The notes: generated from the sequence alone by a model not told the origin. Numbered from the stretch's first letter, positions 9,941-62,924 are shown. The stretch is DNA of 64,000 nt from Thermoplasmata archaeon (GCA_021827405.1 JAKAVY010000002.1:12464-76463); one strand, 5' to 3'. Program-made: numbers and translations.

Positions 9941-10803
9941 CGTCCCGCCCGGACCTGCGTACGGTTGTCTCTGCGGCGGCTCCCGCCGGCCGTTCGGCAC
10001 GGGATGAGAGCCAGACCCTCCGCTACCCCCTCGGACCCCTACCGGTCCTGCCACGTCCTTGGCGGACCCCCCGACACGATGCGGGGCGCTGTGACGGCAC
10101 CGGGGCCTGCGCGACGGCATGCCCCACCGGGGCTCTCGAGGTCACCAGCACCGGTGGCCAGGACCGGGTGACGCTGGACTACGGGAAGTGCCTCTTCTGC
10201 TCACTCTGCGTGGATGCGTGTCCCTCCGGGGCCATGACCTCCACCCCGTTCGAGGAGCTCTCCGTCCGCCGACGGGGGGACCTGATCGCTGTCCACCCGT
10301 CCGTTGCGTCGCTCAACCCCTCCGACGAGCTCAGGCGCGAGGTGGCCACAAGTGTGGGCCGCCTCTTCGCGGGGTCCCTATCGATCCGGGCGGTGGACGC
10401 GGGCAGTTGCAATGGCTGTGAGGTCGAGGTGGGAGCGCTCCTTTGGCCCCGGTACGACCTGGAACGGCTGGGGATCCACCTGGTGGCTTCGCCGCGACAC
10501 GCGGATGCCCTCTTGGTCACGGGCCCGGTCACGCGCAACATGCGCCAGGCACTGGAGAAGACCTATCGTGCCGTCCCTCCTCCTCGATTTGTGCTGGCCG
10601 TCGGAGCGTGCGGGATCTCCGGCGGGCCCTTCGCCGGTTCGGCCGAGGTAGAGGGGGGGGTGGACCGGGTACTTCCCGTCGAGGTCTACATCCCGGGGTG
10701 CCCTCCCTCGCCGGTGGCTCTGCTCCACGGGTTGTGGCTCGCCCTCGGCAAGGTCGAACAACGGATGGTCCGGGGGGAGTTCTCCTCAGGGATCCCACCG
10801 TAA
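9937..10803 (+). CDS. Fusion of 2x[4Fe-4S] ferredoxin (NuoI/HycF-like) and NuoB/HycG-like small subunit
   Basis: KCLFCSLCVDACP (canonical) plus an atypical RCDGTGACATACP. Then the NuoB signatures SCNGCE, GACGISGGPF and YIPGCPP. ATGA overlap at 9937-9940. Confidence 0.85.
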   Translation: MTSRPDLRTVVSAAAPAGRSARDESQTLRYPLGPLPVLPRPWRTPRHDAGRCDGTGACATACPTGALEVTSTGGQDRVTLDYGKCLFCSLCVDACPSGAMTSTPFEELSVRRRGDLIAVHPSVASLNPSDELRREVATSVGRLFAGSLSIRAVDAGSCNGCEVEVGALLWPRYDLERLGIHLVASPRHADALLVTGPVTRNMRQALEKTYRAVPPPRFVLAVGACGISGGPFAGSAEVEGGVDRVLPVEVYIPGCPPSPVALLHGLWLALGKVEQRMVRGEFSSGIPP

Positions 10804-15143: not shown

Positions 15144-17969
15144 ATGGGAGGGAGCCGGCGGGCATCCACGTCGAGACCCGGGGGTCCGCTTTGGAGGAGA
15201 GGGTTGTCGCCCCCACGTCGAGGCAAGCCCGCATTCGGCCGCGGATGCGGTGAGCCGGCCCCGGGCCCGAAACATGCGGTCGCCCTGCTCGGACTGATCG
15301 GCCTCCTCCTGGTTTCGGGATCGGCCCAGGGTCTGTTCGCGCCGGCGGAGCCCCTCTCGCGGGAGGCGGGGTCCGGTGCCCCCGGACATTCGGTCCTCCC
15401 TTCCCTGAGCGGCCGTCCCGCGCCCTCACGGCCGTCCGTCCCCGGGAAGGAGGCCACGACCAGACCCTTCGTCACCCCACCGACACCGATGTTCCGGGCC
15501 GGCCCTGAACCTCCCGTCTCCCCTCGGACGGGCATCGCGCATGCGAGCGGCACCGTCCTCTACGTGTCCCCCTCCGGCTCCAACGGGAACCCGTGTACCG
15601 CGACCGAGCCGTGCCGGCAGATCAACACCGCCGTAGACCGGGCCGCCCCGGGAGACACCGTGCTCGTGGCTAACGGGACGTACCTGGGCTTCGAACTGGA
15701 CGGGACTCACGGTGAGCCGGGCGCCCCGATCATCATCACCGACCCCGGCCACGACGCCGTGATCGAGACCAACGGGTCCTGCTGTAACTGGACCAGCCAG
15801 GGAGAGCAGGACCAGATGTACTTCAACCAGGTCTCCTGGGTGGTGGTCAACGGGCTCCGCAGCTACCAGATCCAATCCACCGTCCCTACCGCGAACCTCT
15901 GGGTGAGTCAGAGCAACAATCTCACGCTGAGCAATCTGACCTTCGAGAACGGCACCTACGTGAATGCCTCCACCGGGTGGCCGAGCAAGGCCAGCCTTTT
16001 CCTGGACCTCTCCACGAACATCACCATCGAGTATGACAACATCTCGGGGGCCAAGGGGTCCCATGGGATCTACTTCAACAACGACGGCCTGCCGTTGACC
16101 TACGGCGATGTGATCCGGAACAACATCCTCGACGATAACAATTGGACGGGGGTCCAACTGGTCTACGCCAGCCACTGCCAGGTGGAGGACAACGTGCTCG
16201 CCGGTAACGGGGCGGGGGGGGCCGCAGGGATCAGCCTTCGCGAAGTGGTGGACTCGGAGGTCCTGAACAATTTGGTCTATGACGAACTGGGGGCGGGCCT
16301 CAGCATCGTGGAGGATGCCTCCCCGGCGGGGGGAACGCAAACCTCGGGGAATCTCATCGCCTACAACACGGTGGTGGTGGGGGCAGCCGGGCGGGCCGCT
16401 CTCATTGTGGGGGCCGGATCCACGGGACCCGGGAATGTCCTGAGGGACAACATTCTCTACACGGAGGACAACGCCGTCTGGCCCTCTCTTGACTTCCAGG
16501 GCTCCAGCGGGACCGCAGACCTGGTGGGGGACCACAACGTGCTTCAATCTGTGGAAGACCCCAACGGAAGCTACTCCCTGGCCCAGTGGCAGTCCCTGGG
16601 CTACGAGAACGGTTCCCTCTCCGCCACCCCGTCGGAGCTCTTCGTCAACGCCACCCAGGGGGACTACCAGCTCGCTCCTCTATCCCCTGCGACGAACGCC
16701 GGCATCGCGATTCCCTCCGTGACCAGCGATATCCAGGGTGACCCACGTCCCGTCTCCGGGTCTTCGGACATCGGTTGCTATGAGAGCGCGAGTCCCTCGC
16801 TCCGGGCCGTGGCCTCGGCCTACCCGGGGAACGGGACCGCCCCTTTGACCGTGACCTTCACGGGCACCGGCTCCGGTGGGAGCGCTCCCTACCGCTACGA
16901 ATGGACCTACGGGGATGGGACCGCCCCCTCTCAGGCTGCCGACCCGCAGCACACGTACAACACCAGCGGCTCCTTTCCCGTGGAACTGACCATCGAGGAC
17001 GCCCGGGGGGGACTGGCCCACGCCTTCCTGAACGTCAGCGTGACGGCCCCCATCCCCTTCTCGGTCCAAATTCAAGCCAACCTCTCCGGTCCCACCGCGG
17101 GCGAGCCCGTGTTCTTCACCGGAGGGGCCTCGGGAGGGACTCCACCGTACTCCGGTTGGGATTGGACCTTTGGCGACGGCTCGACGGCCACGGGTCAGAA
17201 TGTCTCCCACGCGTTCACGAACCCCGGGAACTATAGCGTGGCTCTGAAGGCCACGGACTCACGGGATCGCACGGCCAACGCGTCCTTCCACCTCCAGGTT
17301 TGGGCTCAGCCAACCCTCGCCGTCTCCCTCCAGACCAATGTCACGAGCCTTCCGCTGGGGAGGGCGGTGGCGGTCTCGACCACGGTCAGCGGGGGGACCG
17401 GGCCGTACACGGTCCAGTACGCCGGCCTCCCCCCCGGTTGTGGCGGGGAGAGCGCCTTGGCCTTCTCCTGCGAGCCCGCACAGGCTGGCCATTACAACAT
17501 CACCGCGAAGGTGACGGACACGGTCGGCCGCGCTGGCCAGAGCCCTCCGGCCCCGCTATACGTCCAGGTTCCGTTGTTCCCCCTCTCCGTTCACCTGGAG
17601 ATCTCCTCCCCTTCGGTCCCGGCCGGCACCCTCGTGACGCTGACCTCGATCTCGTCGGGTGGGAGCGGGGGGCCCTTCTCTTACTCCTGGTCCGGACTCC
17701 CGGCGGGGTGCACGAACCTCGACGAGCCATCCCTGGACTGCGTTGTGTCGACCCCAGGGTCCTACCACATTTCCGTCCGGGTCACGGATGCCCAGGGGCA
17801 ATCCAACGCCAGCCAGCCGGTAGGTCTGGTGGTGGCGCCGTCCAAGGCACCTTCCCCGGGTGAGCCCTTCGGTCCCGAAGTGGTCTTCTCCATCACGGCC
17901 CTGATCGCAGGTGCGGTCGTGGTCGCCGGCGTGTATGTTCTACGCCGACGTGCGAGAGGGGCCCACTGA
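15144..17969 (+). CDS. Large secreted surface (S-layer-like) glycoprotein: parallel beta-helix (pectin-lyase fold) + PKD/Ig-like domains + C-terminal TM anchor
   Basis: Signal-peptide-like HAVALLGLIGLLLVSGSAQG. NGTY/NNLTLSNLTFENGTYVNAS beta-helix repeats. PKD motif (TAPLTVTFTGTGSGGSAPYRYEWTYGDGT). C-terminal VVFSITALIAGAVVVAGVYVLRRRAR. Very many N-x-S/T sequons. Start codon uncertain. Confidence 0.75.
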   Translation: MGGSRRASTSRPGGPLWRRGLSPPRRGKPAFGRGCGEPAPGPKHAVALLGLIGLLLVSGSAQGLFAPAEPLSREAGSGAPGHSVLPSLSGRPAPSRPSVPGKEATTRPFVTPPTPMFRAGPEPPVSPRTGIAHASGTVLYVSPSGSNGNPCTATEPCRQINTAVDRAAPGDTVLVANGTYLGFELDGTHGEPGAPIIITDPGHDAVIETNGSCCNWTSQGEQDQMYFNQVSWVVVNGLRSYQIQSTVPTANLWVSQSNNLTLSNLTFENGTYVNASTGWPSKASLFLDLSTNITIEYDNISGAKGSHGIYFNNDGLPLTYGDVIRNNILDDNNWTGVQLVYASHCQVEDNVLAGNGAGGAAGISLREVVDSEVLNNLVYDELGAGLSIVEDASPAGGTQTSGNLIAYNTVVVGAAGRAALIVGAGSTGPGNVLRDNILYTEDNAVWPSLDFQGSSGTADLVGDHNVLQSVEDPNGSYSLAQWQSLGYENGSLSATPSELFVNATQGDYQLAPLSPATNAGIAIPSVTSDIQGDPRPVSGSSDIGCYESASPSLRAVASAYPGNGTAPLTVTFTGTGSGGSAPYRYEWTYGDGTAPSQAADPQHTYNTSGSFPVELTIEDARGGLAHAFLNVSVTAPIPFSVQIQANLSGPTAGEPVFFTGGASGGTPPYSGWDWTFGDGSTATGQNVSHAFTNPGNYSVALKATDSRDRTANASFHLQVWAQPTLAVSLQTNVTSLPLGRAVAVSTTVSGGTGPYTVQYAGLPPGCGGESALAFSCEPAQAGHYNITAKVTDTVGRAGQSPPAPLYVQVPLFPLSVHLEISSPSVPAGTLVTLTSISSGGSGGPFSYSWSGLPAGCTNLDEPSLDCVVSTPGSYHISVRVTDAQGQSNASQPVGLVVAPSKAPSPGEPFGPEVVFSITALIAGAVVVAGVYVLRRRARGAH

Positions 17970-22278: not shown

Positions 22279-22645
22279 GGCGACCGACCTCGACCCATGA
22301 ACGACCGGTCGAGGGGGCTCTCTTGGAAGCACCTGTTGTGGCGAGAATCTCCCTTCACGGGGCCGGCGAAGATGTTCCTGGTGCCCATCGAGAGCCAGTC
22401 CAGGGAGGGCCCCCGTCCGTTAAGGACCTCATTCGATCTTCCTCGACCCGGCAGGTCACGGCCGGGCTCGGCGCGGCCGCCTCCAAGGGTACCTCGCGAG
22501 AAGGAAGCATCGTGCTCCCCTCGCGAGGGTATCTCTGGAAGCAACCCTGAACCTGGCCTCTAGGCGTGGACCCAGGTTTCTCTCAGAAAGGTTCCGCTAC
22601 GTGGAGGACTACGGTAACGCTGGCGTCAGGGTGCAGGGAGGAAGT

Positions 22646-22719
22646 AGCGGGGCATGGATTTGAACCATGGATCTACGGGTTATGAGCCCGTCGGGATGAC
22701 CTGACTACCCTACCCCGCT
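22646..22719 (-). tRNA. Archaeal initiator tRNA-Met (anticodon CAU), no encoded CCA
   Basis: Reverse complement AGCGGGGTAGGGTAGTCAGGTCATCCCGACGGGCTCATAACCCGTAGATCCATGGTTCAAATCCATGCCCCGCT. A1:U72 pair. Anticodon stem ACGGG/CCCGT with 3 consecutive G:C pairs. CAT anticodon. T-arm CATGG-TTCAAAT-CCATG. Confidence 0.85.
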
Positions 22720-30217: not shown

Positions 30218-30290
30218 AGCCGCGGGAGGGAATCGAACCCTCGACCTACTCCTTACCAAGGAGTCGCTCTACCGACTGAGCCACCGCGGC
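30218..30290 (-). tRNA. tRNA-Thr (anticodon GGU), no encoded CCA
   Basis: Reverse complement GCCGCGGTGGCTCAGTCGGTAGAGCGACTCCTTGGTAAGGAGTAGGTCGAGGGTTCGATTCCCTCCCGCGGCT. Cloverleaf with 7-bp acceptor stem, GGT anticodon in loop TTGGTAA, T-loop GGTTCGATTCC. Confidence 0.85.
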
Positions 30291-51102: not shown

Positions 51103-52125
51103 CTACCCTTCCGACGAGGCCGGGGGGTCCGGCGGGTCGGTCCGGGGCGTCGAGCTTTCGAGCCGGGCCCGGTCCTCCGGGGAGAGGCGGAGAAAGAGCA
51201 CCGAAGAGGGGAGCATCTCGAATCCCCGTTCCGTCAGGCCCCCCTTCACCCTCACGCTCAGGTTGGGGGGAAGGCCGGTCACCTCCAGCCCGAGGCCCCC
51301 GGCCTGCCAGTCCTCGAGGAGCCGTCCCAACCAGGGCCCCACTCCGGTCTTCGGGTCCAGGGGAAGCCAGCGGACCGAGTCCACCACGGAGTCCTCGGCC
51401 CGGAAGACCACCACCGGGATGCCGGCCGGCACGTTCCCCCGCTCCGCGTGGACCCGGGTGATCTCCTCCGCGAGCTGGGTCCGCTCCTCCTCCGCCCGCT
51501 GGGCGAGCTGCCGGAGCTGCGCGATCTCGTCATCCTTCTCCTCCAAGCTCTGGCGGAGGTTCGCCAGGGTCACCTTGAGCTGGGAGAGGTCGGACTCCTG
51601 GCTCTCCAGCTGGTCCCGGTACGGTTCGTGCTCGTGGGCGGGGAGTTCGTGCTCGTGGACCGGGAGCTCGTGGTCGTGGGAGGGGAAGGGATGGTCGTGG
51701 TCGGGGAGATCGTGTTCGTGGGGAGGGATGGCGAGGAAGGCTCCCGGCTCCTCCGCGCCGGGGAGGAGCCCCTCCGGTCCCGGTCCCCCGGTCTCCGGAC
51801 CCTCCGGGGCCCCCTCCCCGGTCTCCGGGGCTGGGAGGGCGTCCGTCTGGGCCTCGAGCTCCGGGGCGCTTTGGGGACCGGGGGGTTCCTCGCCGACCCC
51901 CTCGGAAGGGGCCGGGGCAGGGGCCACCCAGGGGGGGACGGTGGCATCGGGCGCCCCGGGAGGGGGGGGAGGGGGGACCGGAAGGGGGATCCCATGGACC
52001 CGGTTGCGGTGGACGGCCATCATCCGGGCGGGGAGTTCCCGGCCGCACTCCGGGCAGGTGTGGACCTCGGTCCCCGGGGAGGCCTCAGGCACCTCGCCCG
52101 GGGCGGGAGCTCCTTCCTCCGGCAC
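51103..52125 (-). CDS. Hypothetical Zn-ribbon/C2H2-like protein with Pro-rich linker, His-rich HEHELP-type tandem repeats and coiled-coil
   Basis: HTCPECGRELPARMMAVHRNRVHG. Repeat tract HEHDLPDHDHPFPSHDHELPVHEHELPAHEHEP. Heptad-like DLSQLKVTLANLRQSLEEKDDEIAQLRQLAQRAEE. Confidence 0.5.
   Translation of the reverse strand: MPEEGAPAPGEVPEASPGTEVHTCPECGRELPARMMAVHRNRVHGIPLPVPPPPPPGAPDATVPPWVAPAPAPSEGVGEEPPGPQSAPELEAQTDALPAPETGEGAPEGPETGGPGPEGLLPGAEEPGAFLAIPPHEHDLPDHDHPFPSHDHELPVHEHELPAHEHEPYRDQLESQESDLSQLKVTLANLRQSLEEKDDEIAQLRQLAQRAEEERTQLAEEITRVHAERGNVPAGIPVVVFRAEDSVVDSVRWLPLDPKTGVGPWLGRLLEDWQAGGLGLEVTGLPPNLSVRVKGGLTERGFEMLPSSVLFLRLSPEDRARLESSTPRTDPPDPPASSEG
51630..51735. repeat. Imperfect tandem repeat of about 18-nt units (gtgctcgtgg/gtggtcgtgg...) encoding the His-rich H(E/D)H(E/D)LP repeats
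   Basis: Visible periodicity gtgctcgtgggcggggagttc / gtgctcgtggaccgggagctc / gtggtcgtgggaggggaaggg / atggtcgtggtcggggagatc / gtgttcgtggggagg. Confidence 0.5.
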
Positions 52126-52252
52126 GAGGATACCAGGGACTCAAGGGGGGAAAAGTGTTCGCCCTCCCCCGGGGTACCCCGCCGAGGGGGGAGGGGGGGC
52201 ATCCTCGGGAGGGAGCAGGCTTTTACCGTCCCTGCGTCGTCCGTCTCCACCG

Positions 52253-53479
52253 ATGCGCATCCTCATCACCGGGATCGACGGCTACTCGGGTTGGGCGCTC
52301 GCCCTCCACCTGCTGAAGCGTGGTCATACCGTCAGCGGCCTGGACAACTTCGTCACCCGCCAGCGGGTGGCGGAAGTGGGCGGTTGGTCCGCCACCCCCA
52401 TCCCCACGTTCCGGGAGCGGCAGGCCGCCTTAGGGGACCTGGGGATCGGGACGATCTCCTTCCACGAGGTGGACCTGGGGGACTATGCGGCGACCCGACG
52501 GGTGCTCAGGGAGGAGCGGCCGGAGGCGGTGGTCCACCTGGGGGAACAGCGCTCCGCGCCCTACTCCATGATCGACGTCCATCACGCAGTGGCCACCCAG
52601 ACCCAGAACGTCACCTCCACCCTTCACCTGCTCTATGCCCTGCACGAGACCCTCCCCGACGCCCACCTGGTGAAGATGGGGACCATGGGGGAGTACGGCA
52701 CCCCGAACGTGGACATCCCTGAGGGGTTCTTCGAGGTGGAGTTCCGGGGCCGCCGGGACCGGATGCCCTTTCCCCGCCAGGCGAGCAGCTGGTACCACTG
52801 GAGCAAAGTGTTCGACTCCGGGGACGTGATGCTGGCGAACCGTCTCTGGGGGCTCCGGGCCACGGATGTGATGCAGGGGGTCATCTACGGGACCCGGACC
52901 CCCGAGATCACCGACGACCGCCTCCTGACCCGCTTCGACTTCGATGAGGTCTGGGGCACCGCGCTCAACCGCTTCTGCGTGCAGGCCGTGCTGGGGCTGC
53001 CGATCACCCCGTACGGGAAGGGAGGGCAGAAGCGGGGCTTCCTCGCCCTGGAGGACTCCGTCCAGAGCCTGACCCTCGCCCTGGAGAACCCCCCCGAGCC
53101 CGGGGAGTATCGCGTCTTCAACCAGTTCGATGAGGCCTACAGCGTACGGCAACTCGCGGACCTGGTGGTGGCCGAGGCCTGCGCCCGGGGCCTGGACTGC
53201 CACGTGGAGGCCTCCTACAACCCCCGGGTGGAGGCGGAGGAGCATTACTACCACCCGCTGCACGAGCGGCTCCCGGCGCTGGGATACCGTCCGCTCCGGA
53301 CGCTGAAGGACTCGCTGGGAGAGATGCTCACGGACCTCACCCGGTTCAAGGCCCGCCTGGAGGCCCGGCGGCACGTCGTCCAGCCCCGGATGGACTTCCG
53401 TTTGTCGGACAACAAGGCGAGACTGTCTGCGCCCCCCGGTGCCCGGGAGGTCCCGGCCGCGCCCTCGGGACACCGGTGA
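52253..53479 (+). CDS. agl3: UDP-sulfoquinovose synthase (SQD1/Agl3 family NAD-dependent sugar-nucleotide enzyme)
   Basis: MRILITGIDGYSGWALALHL (SQD1 GGDGYCGWATALHL motif), EQRSAPYSMID, HLVKMGTMGEYGTPNVDIPEGFFEV. The track ORF starting at 51263 is an upstream read-through. Confidence 0.8.
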   Translation: MRILITGIDGYSGWALALHLLKRGHTVSGLDNFVTRQRVAEVGGWSATPIPTFRERQAALGDLGIGTISFHEVDLGDYAATRRVLREERPEAVVHLGEQRSAPYSMIDVHHAVATQTQNVTSTLHLLYALHETLPDAHLVKMGTMGEYGTPNVDIPEGFFEVEFRGRRDRMPFPRQASSWYHWSKVFDSGDVMLANRLWGLRATDVMQGVIYGTRTPEITDDRLLTRFDFDEVWGTALNRFCVQAVLGLPITPYGKGGQKRGFLALEDSVQSLTLALENPPEPGEYRVFNQFDEAYSVRQLADLVVAEACARGLDCHVEASYNPRVEAEEHYYHPLHERLPALGYRPLRTLKDSLGEMLTDLTRFKARLEARRHVVQPRMDFRLSDNKARLSAPPGAREVPAAPSGHR

Positions 53480-53558
53480 AGGGCCGCTCCGGGCCCCGGC
53501 CGTTCCTTCAAGAAGGGGGACGCTCCTTCCCTTGCCCCGGGGGCGGGAGGCGAGGTCC

Positions 53559-54434
53559 GTGAAGGCCGTCATCACCCTCGCCGGCGAGGGGACCCGACTG
53601 TTGCCCGCGACCCGGGGCCTCCGCAAGGAGATGCTCCCGTTGTTCTACCGGGGAGTGCAGGGCACGGCGGTCCTGGCCCCGGTGGTCCATCATGTGGTCC
53701 GGACCCTGGTGGGGGCCGGCGCCAGGGAGATGGCGCTGGTGGTGGGGCCGGACCAGGGATGGGTCCGTCGCTACTTCGAGCCGGACGAGGCGTTCCTGAG
53801 GCGGCACCGCTCCCACCCCGAGCGCCTCCGGGAGACCCTCGCCCTGGAGCGCATGCTACGGGGGGTCCGCTTCCACTGGGTCGTCCAGCGTCGCCCCCGG
53901 GGCTTCGGGGATGCCCTGTTACGGGCGAGGGGCGTCATGGGAAAGGCCCCGTTCCTGCTGCACGCGGCTGATGCCGTCCTCCGGGAGCCTCACGAAGGAG
54001 AGCTCCCTCGGAGGATGGAAGAGCTCCGGGAGCGGGAGGGGGCTTCGGCGGTGCTGCTGGTCCGTCGGGTGAGGGACCCGCGGCGCTACGGGGTGGTGGA
54101 AGGGCGCCTGACGCGCGCCGGTGGGGGCCTCTCGTTCCTCGAGGTCCGGGGGATGGAGGAGAAGCCGACCCGGCCGAAGAGCCCGTGGGCGGCCACCGCG
54201 GTCTACGCCCTCTCCCCGGAGATCTTCCCGCTCCTCCGGCGGGAGGCCCGAGCCGGGAAGGAACTGGAGGTCACCCAAGGGCTCCGTGCCCTGCTGTCGG
54301 AAGGGCACCGGGTGCTCGCGGTGCGTCTGCCGGGGCCCGGTCACGCCTGGCTCTCGGTGGGATCGCCGGAGGGGTACTATCGGGCGCTCCAGCGGACCTT
54401 TCGGGAGGCCTCCCGGGGGCCCGCAGCTCCCTGA
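53559..54434 (+). CDS. Sugar-1-phosphate nucleotidylyltransferase (UDP-glucose pyrophosphorylase/Agl4-like)
   Basis: KAVITLAGEGTRLLPATRGLRKEMLPL nucleotidyltransferase G-x-G-T-R motif. GTG start preceded by GGGAGG. Confidence 0.75.
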   Translation: MKAVITLAGEGTRLLPATRGLRKEMLPLFYRGVQGTAVLAPVVHHVVRTLVGAGAREMALVVGPDQGWVRRYFEPDEAFLRRHRSHPERLRETLALERMLRGVRFHWVVQRRPRGFGDALLRARGVMGKAPFLLHAADAVLREPHEGELPRRMEELREREGASAVLLVRRVRDPRRYGVVEGRLTRAGGGLSFLEVRGMEEKPTRPKSPWAATAVYALSPEIFPLLRREARAGKELEVTQGLRALLSEGHRVLAVRLPGPGHAWLSVGSPEGYYRALQRTFREASRGPAAP

Positions 54435-54502
54435 CCGGCCGGAAGAGGGGGGCCCCCGGGCCCCCGGTCAACCTATATCATTCCAACGACTAGGCGACGG
54501 CC

Positions 54503-55654
54503 GTGTTCTCCTCCCGCGCGCGCGAACTGGAGATCTCCGGGATCCGCCGGATGTTCGAGGCGGCCCCTCCCGGGACGATCAACCTGGGGCTGGGGGAACC
54601 GGACTTCTCCCCCCCGAAGGCGGTCCAAGAGGCGCTCTTCGACGCGGTCCGCAAGGGCTACAACAAGTACGGCCCCTCGGCGGGCATCCTCCCGCTTCGG
54701 GACGCGCTGGCCCAACGCTATCGGCGCTGGGACGGCCGGACGGCCCGCGAGAGCGTGGTGGTCACCGAAGGGGGGACCGAGGCCCTCGCCGCTTGCGCTC
54801 TGACCCTCTATGAGGTGGGCGATGAGGTCCTGGTCCCGAACCCCGGGTTCGTCCTCTACGCCCCGCATGCCCGGATGGCGGGGGCCGTCCCCGTCCCCTA
54901 TCCCCTCGATGAGGCCAAGGGCTACCAGCCGGACCTGGACGTCCTGGAGTCCCGCATCACTCCCCGGACGCGGGCCCTGGTGGTGAACTCCCCCTCCAAC
55001 CCCACGGGCTCGGTCTACTCCCCAAGGGTGGTGGACCGCCTGGTGGACCTGGCCAGGGACCACGACCTGACCATCGTCTCCGACGAGGTCTACGACGAGA
55101 TCCTCTACGTCCCCCAGGGGCACCGGAGCTTCTGGGGCCGGTACGAGCATGTGGTGGTGGTCAACTCGTTCTCCAAGCTCTTCGCCATGACCGGATGGCG
55201 CCTCGGCTACCTGGTGGCCCCTCCCGCGGTGGCCCAGCAGGTGAACAAGGTCCACTACCATCTGGTGGCCTGCCCCTCCACTCCCGTACAGATGGCGGCC
55301 CTGGCGGGGCTTTCCGCCCCTCCGCGGGAGACCGCGGAGATGGTCCGCGAGTTCCGGGCGCGCCGGGACCTCTTCCTGAGGGGCCTCAAGGAGGTCCGGG
55401 GCCTACGGTGCGTGACCCCGGAAGGGGCGTTCTATGCCTTTCCCCGTATCGACTGGGGGATGACCCCCTTGGAGGCGGCCCAGGCGCTCCTCCAGCGGGG
55501 GCTGCTCTGCACCCCGGGGGACTCGTTCGGCTCCCTGGGGGAAGGGCACCTGCGGATGTCCTTCGCCACCTCACAGGAGAACCTCCGCCGGGCGCTACGT
55601 ATCCTGGAGGAGTTCGGGGAGGAGCGGGCCTCCCGGGGCCGGGACAGGCCGTGA
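54503..55654 (+). CDS. Class I/II PLP-dependent aminotransferase
   Basis: LGLGEPDF, SFSKLFAMTGWRLGY (PLP-Lys), and the C-terminal fold. Confidence 0.8.
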   Translation: MFSSRARELEISGIRRMFEAAPPGTINLGLGEPDFSPPKAVQEALFDAVRKGYNKYGPSAGILPLRDALAQRYRRWDGRTARESVVVTEGGTEALAACALTLYEVGDEVLVPNPGFVLYAPHARMAGAVPVPYPLDEAKGYQPDLDVLESRITPRTRALVVNSPSNPTGSVYSPRVVDRLVDLARDHDLTIVSDEVYDEILYVPQGHRSFWGRYEHVVVVNSFSKLFAMTGWRLGYLVAPPAVAQQVNKVHYHLVACPSTPVQMAALAGLSAPPRETAEMVREFRARRDLFLRGLKEVRGLRCVTPEGAFYAFPRIDWGMTPLEAAQALLQRGLLCTPGDSFGSLGEGHLRMSFATSQENLRRALRILEEFGEERASRGRDRP

Positions 55655-55781
55655 GGCACCGGCTCGCCTCTCTTCTACTGCGAGCCGTCGCGCCCTTTCA
55701 GCGGGACCCCGAGAGCCGGGAAGGGCTCCTTGCCCTTGCCCGTGAGGTCCGGGAGCTCTCCTCCCGGGTGCCTCGCCGGGT

Positions 55782-56930
55782 TCAAAGGGAGCGATAGAGG
55801 GTCTGGAAGGCCTCGCCGGTGCGCTCCCAACGGAAGGCCTGGACCCGCTCGCGTCCGCGGTCCGAGAGGTCCCGCCTCCGCCGGGGGTCTCCCAAGAGAC
55901 TGGCAAGGGCGGAGGCCAGGGCCTCGGCGTCCGAGTACGGGACCAGAAGGGCGTCGTCCCCCACCGCCTCCGGCACCCCCCCGACCCGGGTGGCCACGAT
56001 GGGGAGCCCCGCCGCCATGGCCTCGAGGAGGACCAGTCCGAACGCCTCGTATTCCGAGGGGAGGACGAAGGCCTCGGCGCCGGCGAAGGTCGCCCGGTAG
56101 TCTTCCGGGTCCGGTCGTTCTCCCAGGAAGATCACCTCCTTCTCCAGACCGCGTCTTTGGGCCTCCTCCCGGAGCGCGGGTCCCATCCCCCAGTCCCTCC
56201 CCATCAGCACGAGCGGGACGCGTCGGGAGGGGGGGACCCGGGAGAAGGCCTCCAGCAGGAACGGAAGGCCCTTGTTCCGGGCCAGGCGGCCGCTGAACAG
56301 GAGATAGCGCGAGGGGAGCCCGGTCCGTTTCCTGGCGGCCTCGGGCGAAGGGAGGCGCCCCCAGGGGCCGAGGTCGAGCCCGGGGGGGATGACCCGGATC
56401 TTGCTGCCCGGGGCGAACTCGGAGACCTGCCGGGCCTCGAACGCGCTCTCCACCACCAAGGCGGCGGCCGCCCGGTAGGCGGTCATCCCGAAGAGATGGT
56501 CCTGCACCCGGAGCAAGCCCCGCTTGAGGGGCGGCTCCGCCCGGTCGGCGGGATGGTAGTGCGTGGAGACGACCAGGGGGACTTCCTGGGACTCCGCCAC
56601 GGCGGCGGCCTGGATCACATGGCCGTAGCGGTGGGAATGCGCATGGATAAGGTCCGGGGCATCCTGTCGGAGCCGGTCCATCAGGCCGGGAAGTAGGGGA
56701 AGGGTGAGCCCCGGGATGAGGCGCCGGTAGACGGGGAAGCGTTCCACCGGGACCCCGTCGACCTCGGTGGATGGGTCCTTACGGCGGACCCATCGCCCCT
56801 CGTCATACAGGTCGCTCGCATAGATACGGACCGTCTCCCCCCGGGCCACGAGGACCCGGGTGAGCTCGCGGACCATGGTCTCCACCCCTCCGGGCGCGTC
56901 GTAGCGCAGGAGCACCTGGGCGATCCTCAC
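55782..56930 (-). CDS. GT4-family glycosyltransferase
   Basis: EYEAFGLVLLEAMAAGLPIVATRVGG (GT4 E-x7-E region). GTG start overlapping the upstream stop (GTGA at 56927-56930). The N-terminal 400 codons of the 780-aa track ORF were rejected. Confidence 0.8.
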   Translation of the reverse strand: MRIAQVLLRYDAPGGVETMVRELTRVLVARGETVRIYASDLYDEGRWVRRKDPSTEVDGVPVERFPVYRRLIPGLTLPLLPGLMDRLRQDAPDLIHAHSHRYGHVIQAAAVAESQEVPLVVSTHYHPADRAEPPLKRGLLRVQDHLFGMTAYRAAAALVVESAFEARQVSEFAPGSKIRVIPPGLDLGPWGRLPSPEAARKRTGLPSRYLLFSGRLARNKGLPFLLEAFSRVPPSRRVPLVLMGRDWGMGPALREEAQRRGLEKEVIFLGERPDPEDYRATFAGAEAFVLPSEYEAFGLVLLEAMAAGLPIVATRVGGVPEAVGDDALLVPYSDAEALASALASLLGDPRRRRDLSDRGRERVQAFRWERTGEAFQTLYRSL

Positions 56931-58159
56931 CGGGACCCCTTCCCCTCCGCGAGGACCTGGCGGTAGACCTCCTCCAGCCCATCGGCCACCCGGTCCCACG
57001 TGAACCGGGGCACGGTTTGGGTCCGGCCCAGATCCCCCATCGCCCGGGCCCGGGCCGGATCCGAGAGGAGGTCCTGGAGCGCCTGGGCGAGGGCAGAGGC
57101 ATCCCCGGGTGGGACCAGGAGGCCGTTTCGTCCATCCTCCACGATCCCCGGGATCCCCCCGACCCGGCTCGCCACGACCGGGGTGCCTTGGGCCAGGGCT
57201 TCCAACAGGACCAGGCCGAAGGCCTCGTACTCCGACGGGAGCACGAGGGCCGTGGCCTCCGCGTACGCCGAGGCCAACAGGGATTCCTCCGGGACGAACC
57301 CCACCCAACGGGCCCGGCTCTCGAGACCACGGCCTCGGAGGGCCTCTTGGAGCGCCGCCGCGTCCCCTCCGTCCTCTCCTACGAGGACGAGGGAGAGGTC
57401 CGGGTGGTCTTCCGTGATCCGGGAGAAGGCCTCGACCAGGGTCTTGAGGCCCTTGTTGGAGGCGAGGCGTCCGACGAAGAGCAGGAAGGGCCCGGGGACC
57501 CCGTAGCGCGCCCGGAACCCCCCGCTCCCCTGGGGGGGAGGAGGCAGCGGGCTGTAGCCGGGGGGGATCTCGACCACGTGATCGGGCTCGACCACCTCCC
57601 GCAGCAGGCGGCCTTCCTCGGGGGTCTGTACCACGACCCGGGAGGCGGAGCGGACCACGGGACCGGCGAGGTAGCGGTCGTAGAGGCGGCGCAGGCTCTT
57701 TCGCCGTTCTCCCCCCCAGATGGACCAGGTGGGGTGGAAATGCGCGGTGAGGACCCAGGGGGTCCGGTTCAGCCGGCGGGAGGCCAGGGCCGAGAAGCCC
57801 TGGTAGGTGCCGTAGGTGTGCACATGGAGGAGGTCCGGGTGTTCTCGGCGAAGCCTGGAGTAGAGGCCGGGGAGGAACGGGTAATGCAACTCCCCCGGTA
57901 AGCTCCAGGCGCGGTGGCGGAGGACGGGCACCCCCTCCTCCAGGGCCCAGGCATCCCGGGGGCCCGGGGGGAGCCGGACCCAGGGGATCTCGGTGTAGAG
58001 GTCGCTGGTGACGACCCGGGCGTCGAACCCTCGCGCCCGTTGCCGACGGACCAGCTCCCTCACATGGCGTTCCACGCCGCCGGGACCCGGGGGGTAGCGG
58101 GTGGTCAGGTGGAGCACCCGACATTCCCGTCCCGGGACCCCCTGCCCCGGTGCGGTCAA
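56927..58159 (-). CDS. GT4-family glycosyltransferase
   Basis: EYEAFGLVLLEALAQGTPVVASRVGG. GT-B fold with N-terminal HLTTRYPPGPGGVE. Confidence 0.8.
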   Translation of the reverse strand: MTAPGQGVPGRECRVLHLTTRYPPGPGGVERHVRELVRRQRARGFDARVVTSDLYTEIPWVRLPPGPRDAWALEEGVPVLRHRAWSLPGELHYPFLPGLYSRLRREHPDLLHVHTYGTYQGFSALASRRLNRTPWVLTAHFHPTWSIWGGERRKSLRRLYDRYLAGPVVRSASRVVVQTPEEGRLLREVVEPDHVVEIPPGYSPLPPPPQGSGGFRARYGVPGPFLLFVGRLASNKGLKTLVEAFSRITEDHPDLSLVLVGEDGGDAAALQEALRGRGLESRARWVGFVPEESLLASAYAEATALVLPSEYEAFGLVLLEALAQGTPVVASRVGGIPGIVEDGRNGLLVPPGDASALAQALQDLLSDPARARAMGDLGRTQTVPRFTWDRVADGLEEVYRQVLAEGKGSR

Positions 58160-58193
58160 GACCCCTCCGCTGCGGGACGGGCGGGACGCGCCT

Positions 58194-59270
58194 TCAGGAC
58201 CCCCGGGGGGAGCTCATGCGCATGGCGAACTTCTTGTACGTCTCGCTGGCCCTCACCACCGCCTCCATCTTCACGTACTCGTTGGCCTGGTGGGAAAGGT
58301 CCTCGTCCCCGGCCCCGTAGATCACCACCCGGGGGTTCACGGTGATGTAGTGCACGGCCTCCGAGGCGTGGACCAGGACCGCGAGCTCGGAGCCAGCGAC
58401 CTCCTTGAAGACGCGGATGTGCTCGGCGTTGGGATCCATCTGCAAAGAGGGGAAGGTGACGAGCCGCCGCAGGGTGAACGGCGTCTTGATCCGGCGCAGA
58501 TGCTCGTCCACCTCCCGGTACAGCTCCTCGATGGTGTAGGGCGGGGGGAAGCGGATGTCGACCTCCGCCACCGCCCGGGAGGGGACCACGTTCACCCGGC
58601 TGCCCCCGCTCAAGGTCCCCACGTTGATGGTGACGCTCCCGAGCTCGGGGTGGGCCACCCGGCCCCGGAAGGTCTCCAGGGCGCGGAGGATCCGCATCAT
58701 CTTCACCAGCGCGTTCTCCCCGAGCTGGGGCATGGCCCCGTGGGCCGCGCGGCCCCGGGTCTCGATGGCCAGGTCCAGCACGCCCTTCTCCGCGTAGCCC
58801 ACCCTCAGGCCGGTGGGCTCGCCCACCACGATGGCCTTGGCGCGGCGCAGCGGAAGGGTCTTGGAGAGGGCCACGGCCCCGGCCATGGTGGTCTCCTCGT
58901 CCGTGGTCAAGGCGAGGACGACCGGGATCTTGCGTGCGACCAGGTCCTGGGCGGCCTGGAGCATGGCCACCACGGTCCCTTTCATGTCGGCGCTCCCGCG
59001 ACCATACATCCGACCCCCGGTGAACTGGCTCTGGGAGAAGCTCCAATTGTCCCCCACCGAAGGGGTGTCCAGGTGTCCGGCGAAGACCACCCCACCCTGT
59101 CCGTACTCGGCCAGGAGGGCCGGGACGTGGGAGTCCCCGTGCAGGGAGTTGCGCATCCGGGCCTGTTCGGTGAAGGACTGGACGTAGTCCAGGATCTCGT
59201 GCCTGTCCGAAGGGGGGTCCGAGGAGATCTTGATCAAGTCCGCCAGAGTGTCCACCATCTGGCGCTTCAA
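58194..59270 (-). CDS. M20-family metallopeptidase/deacylase (ArgE/DapE/LysK-like)
   Basis: GHLDTPSVGD, GRGSADMKG, and the Glu-rich TDEETT metal-site motifs. Confidence 0.75.
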   Translation of the reverse strand: MKRQMVDTLADLIKISSDPPSDRHEILDYVQSFTEQARMRNSLHGDSHVPALLAEYGQGGVVFAGHLDTPSVGDNWSFSQSQFTGGRMYGRGSADMKGTVVAMLQAAQDLVARKIPVVLALTTDEETTMAGAVALSKTLPLRRAKAIVVGEPTGLRVGYAEKGVLDLAIETRGRAAHGAMPQLGENALVKMMRILRALETFRGRVAHPELGSVTINVGTLSGGSRVNVVPSRAVAEVDIRFPPPYTIEELYREVDEHLRRIKTPFTLRRLVTFPSLQMDPNAEHIRVFKEVAGSELAVLVHASEAVHYITVNPRVVIYGAGDEDLSHQANEYVKMEAVVRASETYKKFAMRMSSPRGS

Positions 59271-59490
59271 CGAGAGATTCCCCCCTGGTTCCCGGGTCGC
59301 ACGGGCCCCACGGACCGGAGGGGGGGTAGGCCGGGGGGTCTCTTAACTCCTCGCGAACGGACGAGGGGGGAAGACGGCGTCGTTCAACGGCAATTGTCGT
59401 AGAGGGACCTGGCTGGGCTGCCGGACGGGCGCCCCGGCCCCCGCCGTGCGGGGTCCCGGACGAGAGGTCCGACCTCCGCGGAAGGGGCGC

Positions 59491-60297
59491 CTAGAGGTGC
59501 GGGGCGAGCTCCGGCCGCCCCTCGGGGCCGAAGAGGGTCTTCTGCCGGGGGGTGGGGAGGGCCGAGCGCTCCCGGAACAGGCTCCGGAGCTTCTCCCCGG
59601 GGCTCGCCGAGACGGGGCGCCCGTGCCCCGGGAGGAGAAGCCGCACCTCCAGGTGCGTTAATCGCTCGAGCGACGAGATGGACCGATCCAGGTCGAAGGT
59701 GCTGCTCCGGGAGGGGAGGGTCAGCCGGCCCCCGGGGGCCACCACGGCATCCCCTGTGAAGAGGAACTTGCGCCCGGCATGGTAGAACGCCACGCTCCCG
59801 GGTGTGTGACCCGGCACGTGGAGGGCGGTGAAAGGGCCGAGGGTCTCCCCATCCTTCAACGGACGGTCGACCGAGACCGGGGGGCGTCGGACCAGCAGCC
59901 GGACCCAGAGAGGCGCGGTCCGGGGCCCCTGACCCTCGATCGCGGCCTGCTCGGAGACGTGGCAGGCGACCTTGGTCCCCCAGGCCCAACGGAGGTAGGC
60001 GGCGCCCCCCATGTGATCCGGGTGCTGGTGGGTGAGAAGGGAATAGCTCAGGTCGCGGGGGGTGAGCCCCACCCTTCCCAAGGCGGAGACGATGGGGTCC
60101 GCCCGCTCCGGGTAGCCCGCGTCGATCAGGTAGAGGGAAGAGCCCTCCCGTAAAACGAAGGAGTTGGCGATGGGTCCCTTGATCCAGCCCAAACCGCGGG
60201 CGAGGGGAAGGCCGGGAATGGTTCGGTCGGGTTCCGGGTCCACGGGGTCCGGGAGAGGGAGAGGGTCATAACCTTGCGGGAGACCCCCCTCCGGCAC
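59491..60297 (-). CDS. Metallo-beta-lactamase-fold hydrolase
   Basis: LTHQHPDHMGG (HxHxDH) and HVPGHTPGS. Confidence 0.75.
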   Translation of the reverse strand: MPEGGLPQGYDPLPLPDPVDPEPDRTIPGLPLARGLGWIKGPIANSFVLREGSSLYLIDAGYPERADPIVSALGRVGLTPRDLSYSLLTHQHPDHMGGAAYLRWAWGTKVACHVSEQAAIEGQGPRTAPLWVRLLVRRPPVSVDRPLKDGETLGPFTALHVPGHTPGSVAFYHAGRKFLFTGDAVVAPGGRLTLPSRSSTFDLDRSISSLERLTHLEVRLLLPGHGRPVSASPGEKLRSLFRERSALPTPRQKTLFGPEGRPELAPHL

Positions 60298-60371
60298 CCC
60301 CCTTCCCGGGGGTTCCCCCGGGGGGGGCCTGGACCTACCTTTATAGCCTGACCCCGCGAATCTTAGCCTTC

Positions 60372-62924
60372 GTGAACGCCCGCACGCTTGCCCTCGCGGC
60401 CCTGGTCGCTGGTCTGGCCCTTTCGTCGATCCTCCCGGGAGCCTTCGCCCAGGCCGCTCCCGGGAGTGCCCCGTCGCCCTTGACGACGGCCCGGAGCGCC
60501 GCCGCCTGCAACGTGAGCCCGAACCCGACCCTTCAGGTGTACTCCGGCCTGGACGCCGGTGGGGGGTTCGTGTCCCACTGCACGTTCAACCCAGGTGCCT
60601 GGACGGGGGAGAACGCGGTCTACTTCGAGATCTTCGACGGGGCGAAGGACCGCCAGGCGAACGTCACCCTGTTGGACCCTAATGCCACGGCCGACGGGTT
60701 GACCAACCCCGTGGCGCGCGCGACGGTGCCCCTGAGCCCCGCGGGGCCGGTGACGACCTTCGATAGCACCCAGAGCCTGCCGCCCCTCGGGCTGGCCATC
60801 CCGGCCTCGGTCCCCCAGTCCGGGACCTGGTGGCTCAACGTGACCACCGGGCCGGGCGCGAACCATACCACGCAGGTGCCCATCTCGGTGGACACGTTCT
60901 ACGTGGACCTGCAGGTCTCCGTCCCGGCCCCCCTGCCGGGAGCCACCGTGAGCGCGAACTTCCAGGTCCTCTCCTATGCCAGCGGGGGACCGGTCTCGCC
61001 GGCTCCCGCCCTGCGTCTCAAGGGCTGTGCCTACGAGAACGGGAACGCCACCTGCCAGCCGCTGCAGGACCTTCCCGTCCTCTCGGCGGAGAGCCAGGGG
61101 GCGTTCTCCTTCCTCCTGCCGGTGAACGCCACCAACTTCACCTCCCCCCGGATCACGCTCACGGCGAACCTGACCGCGGCGGGCCGGAGCTTCAGCGCGA
61201 CGGGCAGCGCTTCCTTCACCGTGCTCGCCCTAGACCCGCCGATCCTCTGTGCCTCGGACTCCCTGACCTATCTTCCGCTCACCTTCCCCGGATACTGTTA
61301 CCAACCGACGAGCACTTACACCGTGGGACAGCCGGTCTTCTTCGGGGTGCTGGCCGCGCTGGGGGACCCCTCGCTGGGGTACGTGGACACCCCCCTGGCC
61401 GGGGCCCCGGTGGACTTGAGCTACTCCCTGAACGGGCAACCGGTCGCCTCTCCGGCGCTTCCCCAGAACCTCACCACGGACTCCTCCGGGGCCGGGCTCC
61501 TGGTCCTTCCCACCGGCGGCCTCTCTCCCGGGGTGTTCTCCCTCCATGTGGAGGTCCAGACGCCCGGGGCCCCGGTCTTCAGCCAGAGCCGGGTCCTCAA
61601 CGTGACCCTGGTCTCCCCGATCGCCCCCGTCTCCCTGGTCCTCACCTTCAACCAGACGGTCTACGCTCCGGGGAGCACGGTCACCGGCCGGTTCTCCATC
61701 GTCAACGAGACCACAGGAGGGGCGCCGCCAGCCGGCTGGACCGCGTTCTACTACCAGGTCTACAGCTTTCCGAGCACGTCGTACTGCTCCGGGACCCCGC
61801 TCGTGGTATTGAGCGCGGGGAACCTCACCGGGGCTTCCGGGGCCCTCCCCCCCGTGTCTCTGGCCCCGTCGCTCCGGGGGAGCCTCTTGGTCCTGGTGGA
61901 GGCCCATAATGGGACCTTCCTGGCGCCCCCCGGGGCGGAGAGCTCCAGTTGTCTAGTGGTGCGTGCCCCGGGGATCAACCTTCTGGTGAGCGATGCCTCC
62001 TACGGGCCAGGCTCCACCGTCCAAGTGGTCCTTGCCCCGGTAGGCAGCCCCTTCTCCGGGGATACCTACCAGATCACGGTGGAGGCCTCGCCCGGGTCCG
62101 CTCCCGCTCCTCTCCCGGTGATCTACCAGGCGAACTCCACGACCCCCTGGTTCAGCTTTGTCATCCCCCGGGCGGGCACCGCGTCGAGCTACCAGATCAA
62201 CGCCGTGGTCCTAGGCCCCGGCCGGACGGTCCTGGCAGTCTCCTCCACCACGATCTACGAGTACGTGGGGATCAACCTGGTCCTGGGCGTCACCACCCTT
62301 TCCCACTACAGCGACGGTTCGTTCCAACCGGGAGAGACGATCACGGTGAGCTACCAGCTGGTGTCCGAGGGTGGGTACGTCCTGCAGGGGCCCTACCTGT
62401 TGGAGTATGGCTTCTACGACCAGGTGAACTACCAATCCGCCGTCGTCTCGGCGCCCTCGGGGACCTTTAGCGTGACGATCCCGGGGAGCGCCGGCAACGG
62501 GCTCTTGTTCTTGCAGGTCTACGGGTCGGGGCCGGCGCTGGTGGGCAGCGCGAGCTTCTCGGCGACTTCCGGGGTACTGGTGAACGGGCAGCCCTCCAGC
62601 CTCGCCTACGAGATCGTCCCCGGCAGCGGGTTCACCGCCGGACTGCTCTTGCTCCTCGTGCTCCTGGTGGTGGTGGGCCTCATGGCCTACGTACTTTACC
62701 GCCGGGCCACCTACGGCCGGCGACGGGGAGGCGGGGGGCACTTCGAGACGGAGCATGGACCGAAAGGAGAGGTGCTCCCGCCGGCGCCCTCCTCCGGGGG
62801 GGCCCCTCGGGACCCCTCCCCGGTCCAGGGCCCGGCCCCTGCGCCCGGCCCTTCCGCGCCCGAGGACTCCCCGGTGGAACCCCCGGTCTCCGCGAGCCCC
62901 TCCCCGCAGGACTATGTAGAGTGA
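60372..62924 (+). CDS. Large secreted surface (S-layer-like) glycoprotein with C-terminal TM anchor
   Basis: Signal peptide MNARTLALAALVAGLALSSILPGAFAQA. More than 25 N-x-S/T sequons (NVS, NAT, NHT, NGT, NFT, NLT...). C-terminal LLLLLVLLVVVGLMAYVLYRR followed by a Pro/Ser-rich cytoplasmic tail. Confidence 0.7.
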   Translation: MNARTLALAALVAGLALSSILPGAFAQAAPGSAPSPLTTARSAAACNVSPNPTLQVYSGLDAGGGFVSHCTFNPGAWTGENAVYFEIFDGAKDRQANVTLLDPNATADGLTNPVARATVPLSPAGPVTTFDSTQSLPPLGLAIPASVPQSGTWWLNVTTGPGANHTTQVPISVDTFYVDLQVSVPAPLPGATVSANFQVLSYASGGPVSPAPALRLKGCAYENGNATCQPLQDLPVLSAESQGAFSFLLPVNATNFTSPRITLTANLTAAGRSFSATGSASFTVLALDPPILCASDSLTYLPLTFPGYCYQPTSTYTVGQPVFFGVLAALGDPSLGYVDTPLAGAPVDLSYSLNGQPVASPALPQNLTTDSSGAGLLVLPTGGLSPGVFSLHVEVQTPGAPVFSQSRVLNVTLVSPIAPVSLVLTFNQTVYAPGSTVTGRFSIVNETTGGAPPAGWTAFYYQVYSFPSTSYCSGTPLVVLSAGNLTGASGALPPVSLAPSLRGSLLVLVEAHNGTFLAPPGAESSSCLVVRAPGINLLVSDASYGPGSTVQVVLAPVGSPFSGDTYQITVEASPGSAPAPLPVIYQANSTTPWFSFVIPRAGTASSYQINAVVLGPGRTVLAVSSTTIYEYVGINLVLGVTTLSHYSDGSFQPGETITVSYQLVSEGGYVLQGPYLLEYGFYDQVNYQSAVVSAPSGTFSVTIPGSAGNGLLFLQVYGSGPALVGSASFSATSGVLVNGQPSSLAYEIVPGSGFTAGLLLLLVLLVVVGLMAYVLYRRATYGRRRGGGGHFETEHGPKGEVLPPAPSSGGAPRDPSPVQGPAPAPGPSAPEDSPVEPPVSASPSPQDYVE

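Follow-up and report, generated by a model that had tools for sequence, protein, structure and literature searches.

Where would the sulfo-sugar predicted to be made at this locus go? The question is raised by a gene cluster in a 64,000-nucleotide (nt) stretch of DNA from an uncultured Thermoplasmata archaeon (GCA_021827405.1, JAKAVY010000002.1:12464-76463; hereafter, the window), in which a gene for a putative UDP-sulfoquinovose synthase lies near a sugar nucleotidyltransferase gene, two family 4 glycosyltransferase (GT4) genes and a gene for a surface protein rich in N-x-S/T sequons. An initial annotation of positions 51103-60297, made from the sequence alone, proposed an N-glycosylation cluster. 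Here, we report that the synthase assignment is genuine and that the locus may, with a rough probability of 0.55 and by analogy with characterized archaea, be a Thermoplasmata module for sulfo-sugar supply, accompanied by glycan-building enzymes and feeding an N-glycan. The earlier observation was largely real; its interpretation is plausible, over-specified and wrong in some details.

Sulfo-sugar synthesis genes

At a G+C content of ~70%, the raw list of open reading frames (ORFs) in the window was crowded with spurious overlapping frames, and genes were defined via domain matches (Pfam and NCBIfam), orthologs and third-position G+C content (GC3). The synthase candidate (52253-53479, + strand; 408 amino acids [aa]) aligned with positions 1-383 of the 384 in the NCBIfam model NF041015, "UDP-sulfoquinovose synthase" (E=5.6e-172); its score of 572 bits lies 3 below the cut-off of the model, 575. 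Among structures in the Protein Data Bank (PDB), SQD1 entries 1QRR and 1I24 both matched at E~2e-108; for 1QRR, from Arabidopsis thaliana (E=1.9e-108), query residues 2-373 corresponded to chain residues 3-375. Identity to A. thaliana SQD1 was 47%.

The window protein was aligned with SQD1 and 120 homologs for a check of its active site. The GxxGxxG motif and H96, R101, T145, M146, S180, Y182, H183, S185, K186 and Q209 (SQD1 numbering) were invariant across SQD1, the window protein and all 120 homologs. In window numbering, the protein has G7/G10/G13 at the NAD+ site, the catalytic triad T144, Y181 and K185 (YxxxK) and the further key residues H95, R100, M145, H182 and Q208. Alanine at His95, Arg101, Met145, Tyr182 or Lys186 inactivates Sulfolobus Agl3 (PMC4388408). 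The initial annotation had made its SQD1-family call hinge on the sulfite-site residues, and the active-site residues are all in place. Since the match is full length and all active-site residues are intact, we regard the synthase assignment as genuine; as a prediction from sequence, an SQD1/Agl3-type UDP-sulfoquinovose synthase at 52253-53479 is solid.

An exact-sequence look-up of the window synthase returned no record. Homologs at 65-92% identity all came from metagenome-assembled genomes (MAGs) of uncultured Thermoplasmata, and many already carried the name UDP-sulfoquinovose synthase. A 4.5-kb contig labelled "MAG: bacterium" (L018, JAKBKR010000210.1) also encodes an SQD1, 71% identical to the window protein; this contig is probably mis-binned.

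After a gap of 79 nt on the same strand follows a gene for a 291-aa GalU-like sugar-1-phosphate nucleotidyltransferase (NT; 53559-54434, +; Pfam NTP_transferase, E=7.6e-22). Its best NCBIfam match was galU (108.6 bits, under the cut-off of that model), and its best PDB matches were full-length GalU structures (3JUJ, E=8e-22). On these matches, NT is a probable UDP-glucose pyrophosphorylase and counterpart of Sulfolobus Agl2. In the Sulfolobus acidocaldarius locus, the pyrophosphorylase gene beside agl3 is agl2, while agl4 carries a glucokinase annotation and agl1 is listed as encoding a membrane-bound transferase (PMC4388408). What had been described as a copy of the Sulfolobus agl3/agl4 pair is thus correct as a pairing of synthase and pyrophosphorylase, with agl2 as the proper name of the second gene.

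Gene order among relatives

A scan of one genome per species kept 80 Thermoplasmata loci (given here by L numbers), all with an SQD1 homolog, from soil, peat, permafrost and hot springs; they include UBA184, a Lutacidiplasmatales genome (PMC9287336). Each window protein was run by tblastn against these loci, and counts were taken from the 58 loci with at least 6.5 kb of sequence downstream of SQD1. NT was present in 51/58 loci, directly downstream of SQD1 and on its strand in 51/51. The two GT4 genes were nearly as frequent (GT4A in 51/58 loci, on the SQD1 strand in 49; GT4B in 49/58, on the SQD1 strand in 47), as was an M20-family metallohydrolase gene (52/58, on the SQD1 strand in 50). A class I/II aminotransferase (AT) gene occurred in 50/58 loci, at the far end of the block and opposite to SQD1 in 48, and a metallo-beta-lactamase (MBL)-fold gene occurred in 7/58. 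The order SQD1-NT-M20-GT4A-GT4B was found on one strand in 44/58 species-level loci.

Relative to this common arrangement, the window gene order is a clean inversion of MBL-M20-GT4A-GT4B-AT (54435-60371), as established against L002-type genomes (L002, L010 and L014 compared). Only the closest relatives (L001, L006 and L007) have the window arrangement in common. No inverted repeats were found at the inversion breakpoints, only GC-rich noise.

Some lineages carry further glycosyltransferase genes at the same site: three GT2 genes between NT and M20 (L041:12191-15568) or a third, longer GT4 gene after GT4B (L043:14968-16374 and L065:16046-17533). These additions favor assembly of an oligosaccharide. 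At L005:13360-15699, on one long contig, GT4A and GT4B are called as a fused gene with a 779-aa product, which is either real or the result of a frameshift or assembly artifact.

Glycosyltransferases

GT4A (56927-58159, -; 410 aa; Pfam Glycos_transf_1, E=4.7e-42, and Glyco_trans_4_4) and GT4B (55782-56930, -; 382 aa; GT4 family) are paralogs with 41.5% identity over their full length. The EX7E motif is intact in both (EAFGLVLLE in GT4A), and neither has a transmembrane (TM) segment (maximum hydropathy in GT4A, 1.42). As the initial annotation had noticed, GT4A ends and GT4B begins within a shared GTGA, which contains the TGA stop codon of the former and the GTG start codon of the latter; this 4-nt overlap recurs in L001, L002 and L004. 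The two genes had been described as divergently transcribed; both in fact lie on the minus strand, co-directional, and converge on the SQD1-NT-AT unit. By these features, GT4A and GT4B are predicted to be soluble, retaining enzymes of the GT-B type whose translation is coupled.

The best PDB match of GT4A was sucrose-phosphate synthase 6KIH (128 bits). The closest structural relatives of the GT4s were 6KIH, GlgM, MshA and BshA, followed by PimA/PimB and PglA-type enzymes. For comparison with SqdX, a metagenome scan with A. thaliana SQD1 as the query yielded nine sqdB loci with a 373- to 378-aa GT4 encoded directly downstream; sqdB in these contigs, which are probably cyanobacterial, was 70-73% identical to A. 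thaliana SQD1, and the nine GT4s were taken to be SqdX. In BLASTP, they aligned to GT4A/B at 61-103 bits (26-39% identity) and mostly over the C-terminal domain, below the score of 6KIH, so GT4A/B are not SqdX orthologs. A plasmid search for sqdB neighbors returned alpha-proteobacterial, actinobacterial and haloarchaeal loci only, none with a GT4 partner.

Surface proteins

Beyond the inverted block, positions 60372-62924 (+) encode an 850-aa type I anchored surface protein, with a signal helix and a TM helix. It contains 16 N-x-S/T sequons against 5.2 ± 2.0 in composition-preserving shuffles, of which 0/2000 reached 16; 53% of its Asn residues lie in sequons, and each of eight cytoplasmic neighbors of the gene has 0-1. 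The earlier description of this protein as anchored and rich in sequons holds, although "saturated" overstates a density of 1.9 per 100 aa. A search of 5.8 billion clustered proteins yielded just 7 homologs. Of the 16 sequons, 12 are kept in at least 5 of the 7 homologs, and four are kept even at 30% identity; this conservation in position speaks for actual use of these sites.

No Pfam or NCBIfam family matched the 850-aa protein. Its AlphaFold (AF2) model (pLDDT, 61.7) has a signal-like helix at residues 4-18, an all-beta ectodomain of ~700 aa, a TM helix at 753-781 and then a disordered Pro-rich tail. Foldseek related the model to generic macroglobulin-type beta-sandwich arrays (MG domains of alpha2-macroglobulin/complement) at TM-scores of ≤0.21, which suggest no more than tandem Ig/MG-like domains, and the predicted ectodomain has no thioester domain of the alpha2-macroglobulin/complement type. 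On this model, the term "S-layer-like" is possible. The motif "tttata" at 60340-60345, 27-32 nt before the GTG start, suggests that the gene has its own TATA box.

A second anchored surface protein of this kind, which the initial annotation had pointed out at 15144-17969 (+; 941-aa ORF), was borne out: it has 23 sequons against 8.1 ± 2.6 expected, a right-handed beta-helix/NosD-like region and PKD domains (Pfam PKD, Beta_helix and NosD), and a C-terminal TM segment.

In a sister clade (L012, L016, L017 and L020), SQD1 has no NT or GT4 neighbors and starts 7-12 nt after the gene for a 1262- to 1426-aa surface protein (L012:2203-6306, L016:4366-8448, L017:5713-9993 and L020:6205-9993). These proteins combine a signal peptide and a TM segment with double zinc ribbons at the cytoplasmic C-terminus, and they carry 35-41 sequons (>2 times the expected number); their genes are likely co-transcribed with SQD1. 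In L081 and L029, SQD1 lies beside genes for a Kelch-repeat protein and a thermopsin-domain secreted protein. The recurrent proximity of SQD1 to surface-protein genes gives circumstantial support to a link between the sulfo-sugar and surface glycoproteins.

Fate of the sulfo-sugar

In the pathway that we propose, NT would, judging from its family, convert UTP and glucose-1-phosphate to UDP-glucose. The synthase, a short-chain dehydrogenase/reductase with bound NAD+, is then predicted to oxidize C4 and eliminate water, giving a 4-keto-5,6-ene, before adding sulfite at C6 and re-reducing C4 to yield UDP-6-sulfoquinovose; the synthase step is strongly supported by sequence. More tentatively, GT4A and GT4B would extend a lipid-linked glycan at the cytoplasmic face of the membrane, and one of the pair may be responsible for alpha-linked addition of the sulfo-sugar. 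By analogy, the glycan would be flipped and transferred by AglB, encoded elsewhere, to N-x-S/T sequons of surface proteins, the 850-aa and 941-aa proteins of the window among them. The initial annotation had called this glycan sulfated; with a sulfonate joined to the sugar through a C-S bond, sulfonated would be the right term.

To our knowledge, sulfonated sugars on archaeal surfaces are known from two cultured species only. Vinogradov et al. in 2012 reportedly described general N-glycosylation with 6-C-sulfofucose in Thermoplasma acidophilum. N-glycans are the only documented archaeal fates of such sugars, with sulfoquinovose in S. acidocaldarius and 6-C-sulfofucose in T. acidophilum (PMC4388408, PMC12421959, PMC11407970), and T. 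acidophilum, a member of the class to which the window organism belongs, has an SQD1 homolog (PMC4388408). The window also brings several glycosyltransferase and nucleotide-sugar genes (two GT4s, SQD1 and NT) together at one locus, as in agl clusters. A literature search found no paper that links UDP-sulfoquinovose synthase to Lutacidiplasmatales or to other non-Thermoplasmatales Thermoplasmata.

Several observations weigh against this N-glycan assignment. The GT4s lie on the strand opposite to SQD1-NT in the window, and a homolog of the 850-aa protein adjoins the cluster in only 5/58 loci. An unrelated PAC2 gene adjoins SQD1 in 67/80 loci, as faithfully as the GT4s, and the upstream run of GNAT, CBS, NAC, NUDIX, diphthamide synthase, PdxT, HMG-CoA reductase, GrpE and GyrB genes is also conserved. 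In two sister-clade assemblies that likewise carry SQD1 (GCA_021823345.1 and GCA_021790425.1), M20 orthologs (66-68% identical) lie far from SQD1 and any GT4. Given such sticky synteny and the unlinked M20, adjacency alone is weak evidence that the GT4s use UDP-sulfoquinovose. The GT4s are also closer to enzymes with small-molecule acceptors (sucrose-phosphate synthase, GlgM, MshA and BshA) than to the GT4s of lipid-linked glycans, and retaining GT4s make alpha linkages only, not the beta-linked sulfoquinovose of Sulfolobus. The AglB motif WWDxG was absent from six frames of the window and of 1.5 Mb of Thermoplasmata flanks, and no AglB, flippase or dolichol-phosphate gene was found in the window or within ±10 kb in >80 relatives; AglB is often unlinked in archaea, and its absence near the cluster is no exclusion. 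A scan of 20 other ORFs, all within the first 31.6 kb of the window and short of the stretch at 31.7-41 kb, turned up no further glycosylation genes.

The sulfo-sugar might instead end on a lipid, with a GT4 acting like SqdX/SQD2 to place alpha-sulfoquinovose on archaeol or a tetraether lipid; the product would be an anionic, phosphate-sparing glycolipid, and the surface protein would be unrelated. SqdX and SQD2 are themselves retaining GT4 enzymes, the window GT4s are soluble or peripheral, and sulfoquinovose, beta-linked in the Sulfolobus N-glycan, is alpha-linked elsewhere (PMC11407970). A paper on Thaumarchaeota MAGs takes the gene as a sulfolipid marker (PMC10640624), and the wall-less Thermoplasmatales depend on glycolipids and lipoglycans (PMC12448462). 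This route nevertheless appears unlikely to us: the inferred SqdX proteins come no closer to GT4A/B than do unrelated GT4s in the PDB, and the presence of two coupled GT4s, in some lineages alongside additional glycosyltransferases, points to a longer glycan. Literature searches turned up no archaeal sulfoquinovosyl lipid, and we know of none.

Alternatively, there may be no functional cluster beyond SQD1-NT, the GT4 pair, M20, AT and MBL being mere neighbors in a slowly rearranging region. The GT4s would then make something unrelated, for example a neutral glycolipid, a lipoglycan or, like enzymes of the sucrose-phosphate, MshA or BshA type, a sugar-derived solute, and the sulfo-sugar would serve transferases with genes at other loci. 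The small-molecule acceptors of the closest GT4 matches would fit, as would the unlinked M20 of the sister clade, where SQD1 is retained with no GT4 within 10 kb; unrelated upstream genes (PAC2, GNAT, CBS, NAC, NUDIX and diphthamide synthase) are equally conserved in order, and the inversion in the window splits the units without apparent harm. Yet SQD1, NT, MBL, M20, GT4A, GT4B, AT and the surface-protein gene form an intact set in L002-type genomes despite a wholly different upstream context, and additional glycosyltransferases have been recruited to exactly this site, and we judge a chance neighborhood improbable. A last variant would refine the N-glycan assignment: the product could be 6-C-sulfofucose, formed by a separate 4-epimerase acting on UDP-sulfoquinovose or through altered stereochemistry. 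T. acidophilum combines an SQD1 homolog with a sulfofucose N-glycan, for which no biosynthetic pathway has been identified (PMC4388408, PMC12421959). Pfam and NCBIfam scans revealed no epimerase gene at the window locus, and the active site matches the gluco-configured SQD1 residue for residue; sulfofucose is a quite unlikely product here.

GT4A/B could form an archaeal sulfo-sugar transferase system that places alpha-sulfoquinovose or, after epimerization, sulfofucose on a lipid-linked N-glycan precursor of non-Thermoplasmatales Thermoplasmata or, less likely, on an ether lipid; we regard this more specific role as doubtful. We know of no archaeal sulfo-sugar transferase demonstrated so far. 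In Sulfolobus, the part is given to agl1, by prediction (PMC4388408). The two conserved GT4 genes are testable candidates. If they are the transferases, they would provide a genetic handle on a class-wide pathway for sulfofucose/sulfoquinovose glycans, and were the acceptor an ether lipid, a first sulfonolipid from archaea would result. Uncultured Thermoplasmata from soil, peat and hot springs widely carry the synthase/pyrophosphorylase module, which, with its neighbors, is strongly conserved among them. Two cautions follow: SQD1 homologs in archaeal MAGs are not automatically sulfolipid markers, and not every gene of a conserved block belongs to one pathway.

Neighboring genes and the rest of the window

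Within 51103-60297, the initial annotation had named the synthase, NT and both GT4s, all of which are there; it made no mention of the M20, AT and MBL genes or of a 340-aa ORF. The M20 ArgE/DapE-like metallohydrolase (58194-59270, -; 358 aa; Pfam Peptidase_M20 and M20_dimer) is, at 73-98% identity, conserved more strongly than SQD1 and any other gene of the block. The orthogroup does not extend beyond this Thermoplasmata group; identity falls sharply from ~63% to ~40%. It scored under every NCBIfam cut-off, and in the PDB, it matched ArgE (7RSF, E=3e-31). A role as pathway deacetylase, by analogy with MshB/BshB and with its place between NT and the GT4s in 50 loci, was considered and rejected, because orthologs occur in another context, away from SQD1 and GT4 genes. 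In the sister clade, M20 has a CN-hydrolase gene on one side and a gene for a large surface protein on the other, with ribosomal genes and aconitase close by (compared: L088, L089, L171 and L172). Because it is unlinked there, we treat M20, the upstream gene of the GT4A-GT4B unit in the window, as probably a functionally unrelated passenger.

The same caution was applied to AT and MBL. AT (54503-55654, +; 383 aa; Pfam Aminotran_1_2, E=5e-71) reached no NCBIfam equivalog cut-off and gave a weak DegT signal only. A TATA-like "tatat" at 54474-54478 suggests that it may have its own promoter. A function as sugar aminotransferase was rejected, since the protein is of the class I/II, AspAT-like type, convergent to the block in most genomes and seemingly under its own promoter; it is a probable aspartate-aminotransferase-like passenger. 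The MBL-fold hydrolase (59491-60297, -; 268 aa; Pfam Lactamase_B, E=6.8e-30), present in few loci, looks like a lineage-specific passenger.

By eye, TATA-like motifs lie 27-30 nt before the start codons of SQD1, AT and the surface-protein gene, and GGAGG-like motifs occur instead upstream of NT and GT4B. We infer five putative transcription units: SQD1-NT, AT, M20-GT4A-GT4B, MBL and the surface-protein gene.

The 340-aa ORF (51103-52125, -) is divergent from SQD1. It has a zinc-finger-like N-terminus (CPECG...HRNRVHG), a His-rich HxHxL repeat (HEHDLPDHDHPFPSHDHELPVHEHELPAHEHE) and a coiled coil; it matched no Pfam family, with coiled-coil noise only, and its homologs were found only in L001, L006 and L008. 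It is no part of the pathway.

Elsewhere, the window encodes chorismate mutase and further housekeeping functions, besides a complex-I/Mrp-like module and, at 619-1158 (-), a nickel superoxide dismutase (Ni-SOD), an enzyme that PMC9287336 lists for Lutacidiplasmatales as well. In the module (3126-10803), Mrp/complex-I-like membrane subunits are clustered with a NuoB/ferredoxin-type subunit. Between 18000 and 23000, the G+C content drops to 61-64%, against ~70% elsewhere, and small glyoxalase-family ORFs occur; this stretch may be an insertion or integrated element. One tRNA gene lies within it (22645-22719, -) and another at 30218-30290 (-).

Comparison with known systems

The closest parallel is the agl1-agl4 locus of S. 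acidocaldarius. Both loci have an SQD1-family synthase with the same catalytic residues adjoining a glucose-1-phosphate nucleotidyltransferase, and both organisms are acid- or heat-associated archaea with sequon-rich surface proteins. The window differs in having no glucokinase (agl4), with no kinase among the nine genes of the locus, and in having two soluble, retaining GT4 paralogs, restricted to alpha linkage, in place of an Agl1 described as membrane bound. M20 and AT, both unrelated, are interleaved in the window and not in the Sulfolobus locus.

T. acidophilum is of the same class as the window organism, and both have an SQD1 homolog and multiple membrane-anchored proteins rich in N-x-S/T, glycoproteins in the case of T. 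acidophilum. Its sugar, however, is the galacto epimer, whereas the window represents an uncultured, high-GC (~70%) lineage outside Thermoplasmatales. The sqdB-sqdX (SQD1-SQD2) sulfolipid system of cyanobacteria and plants shares with the window a UDP-sulfoquinovose synthase and GT4-family transferases nearby; it has one GT4 where the window has two paralogs, which, at ≤103 bits, are not SqdX orthologs, and its acceptor, diacylglycerol, does not exist in archaea. The synthase gene is already called by public annotation pipelines, and the biology parallels that of Sulfolobus and Thermoplasma; the locus is a new example of a known archaeal theme and not a new kind of system.

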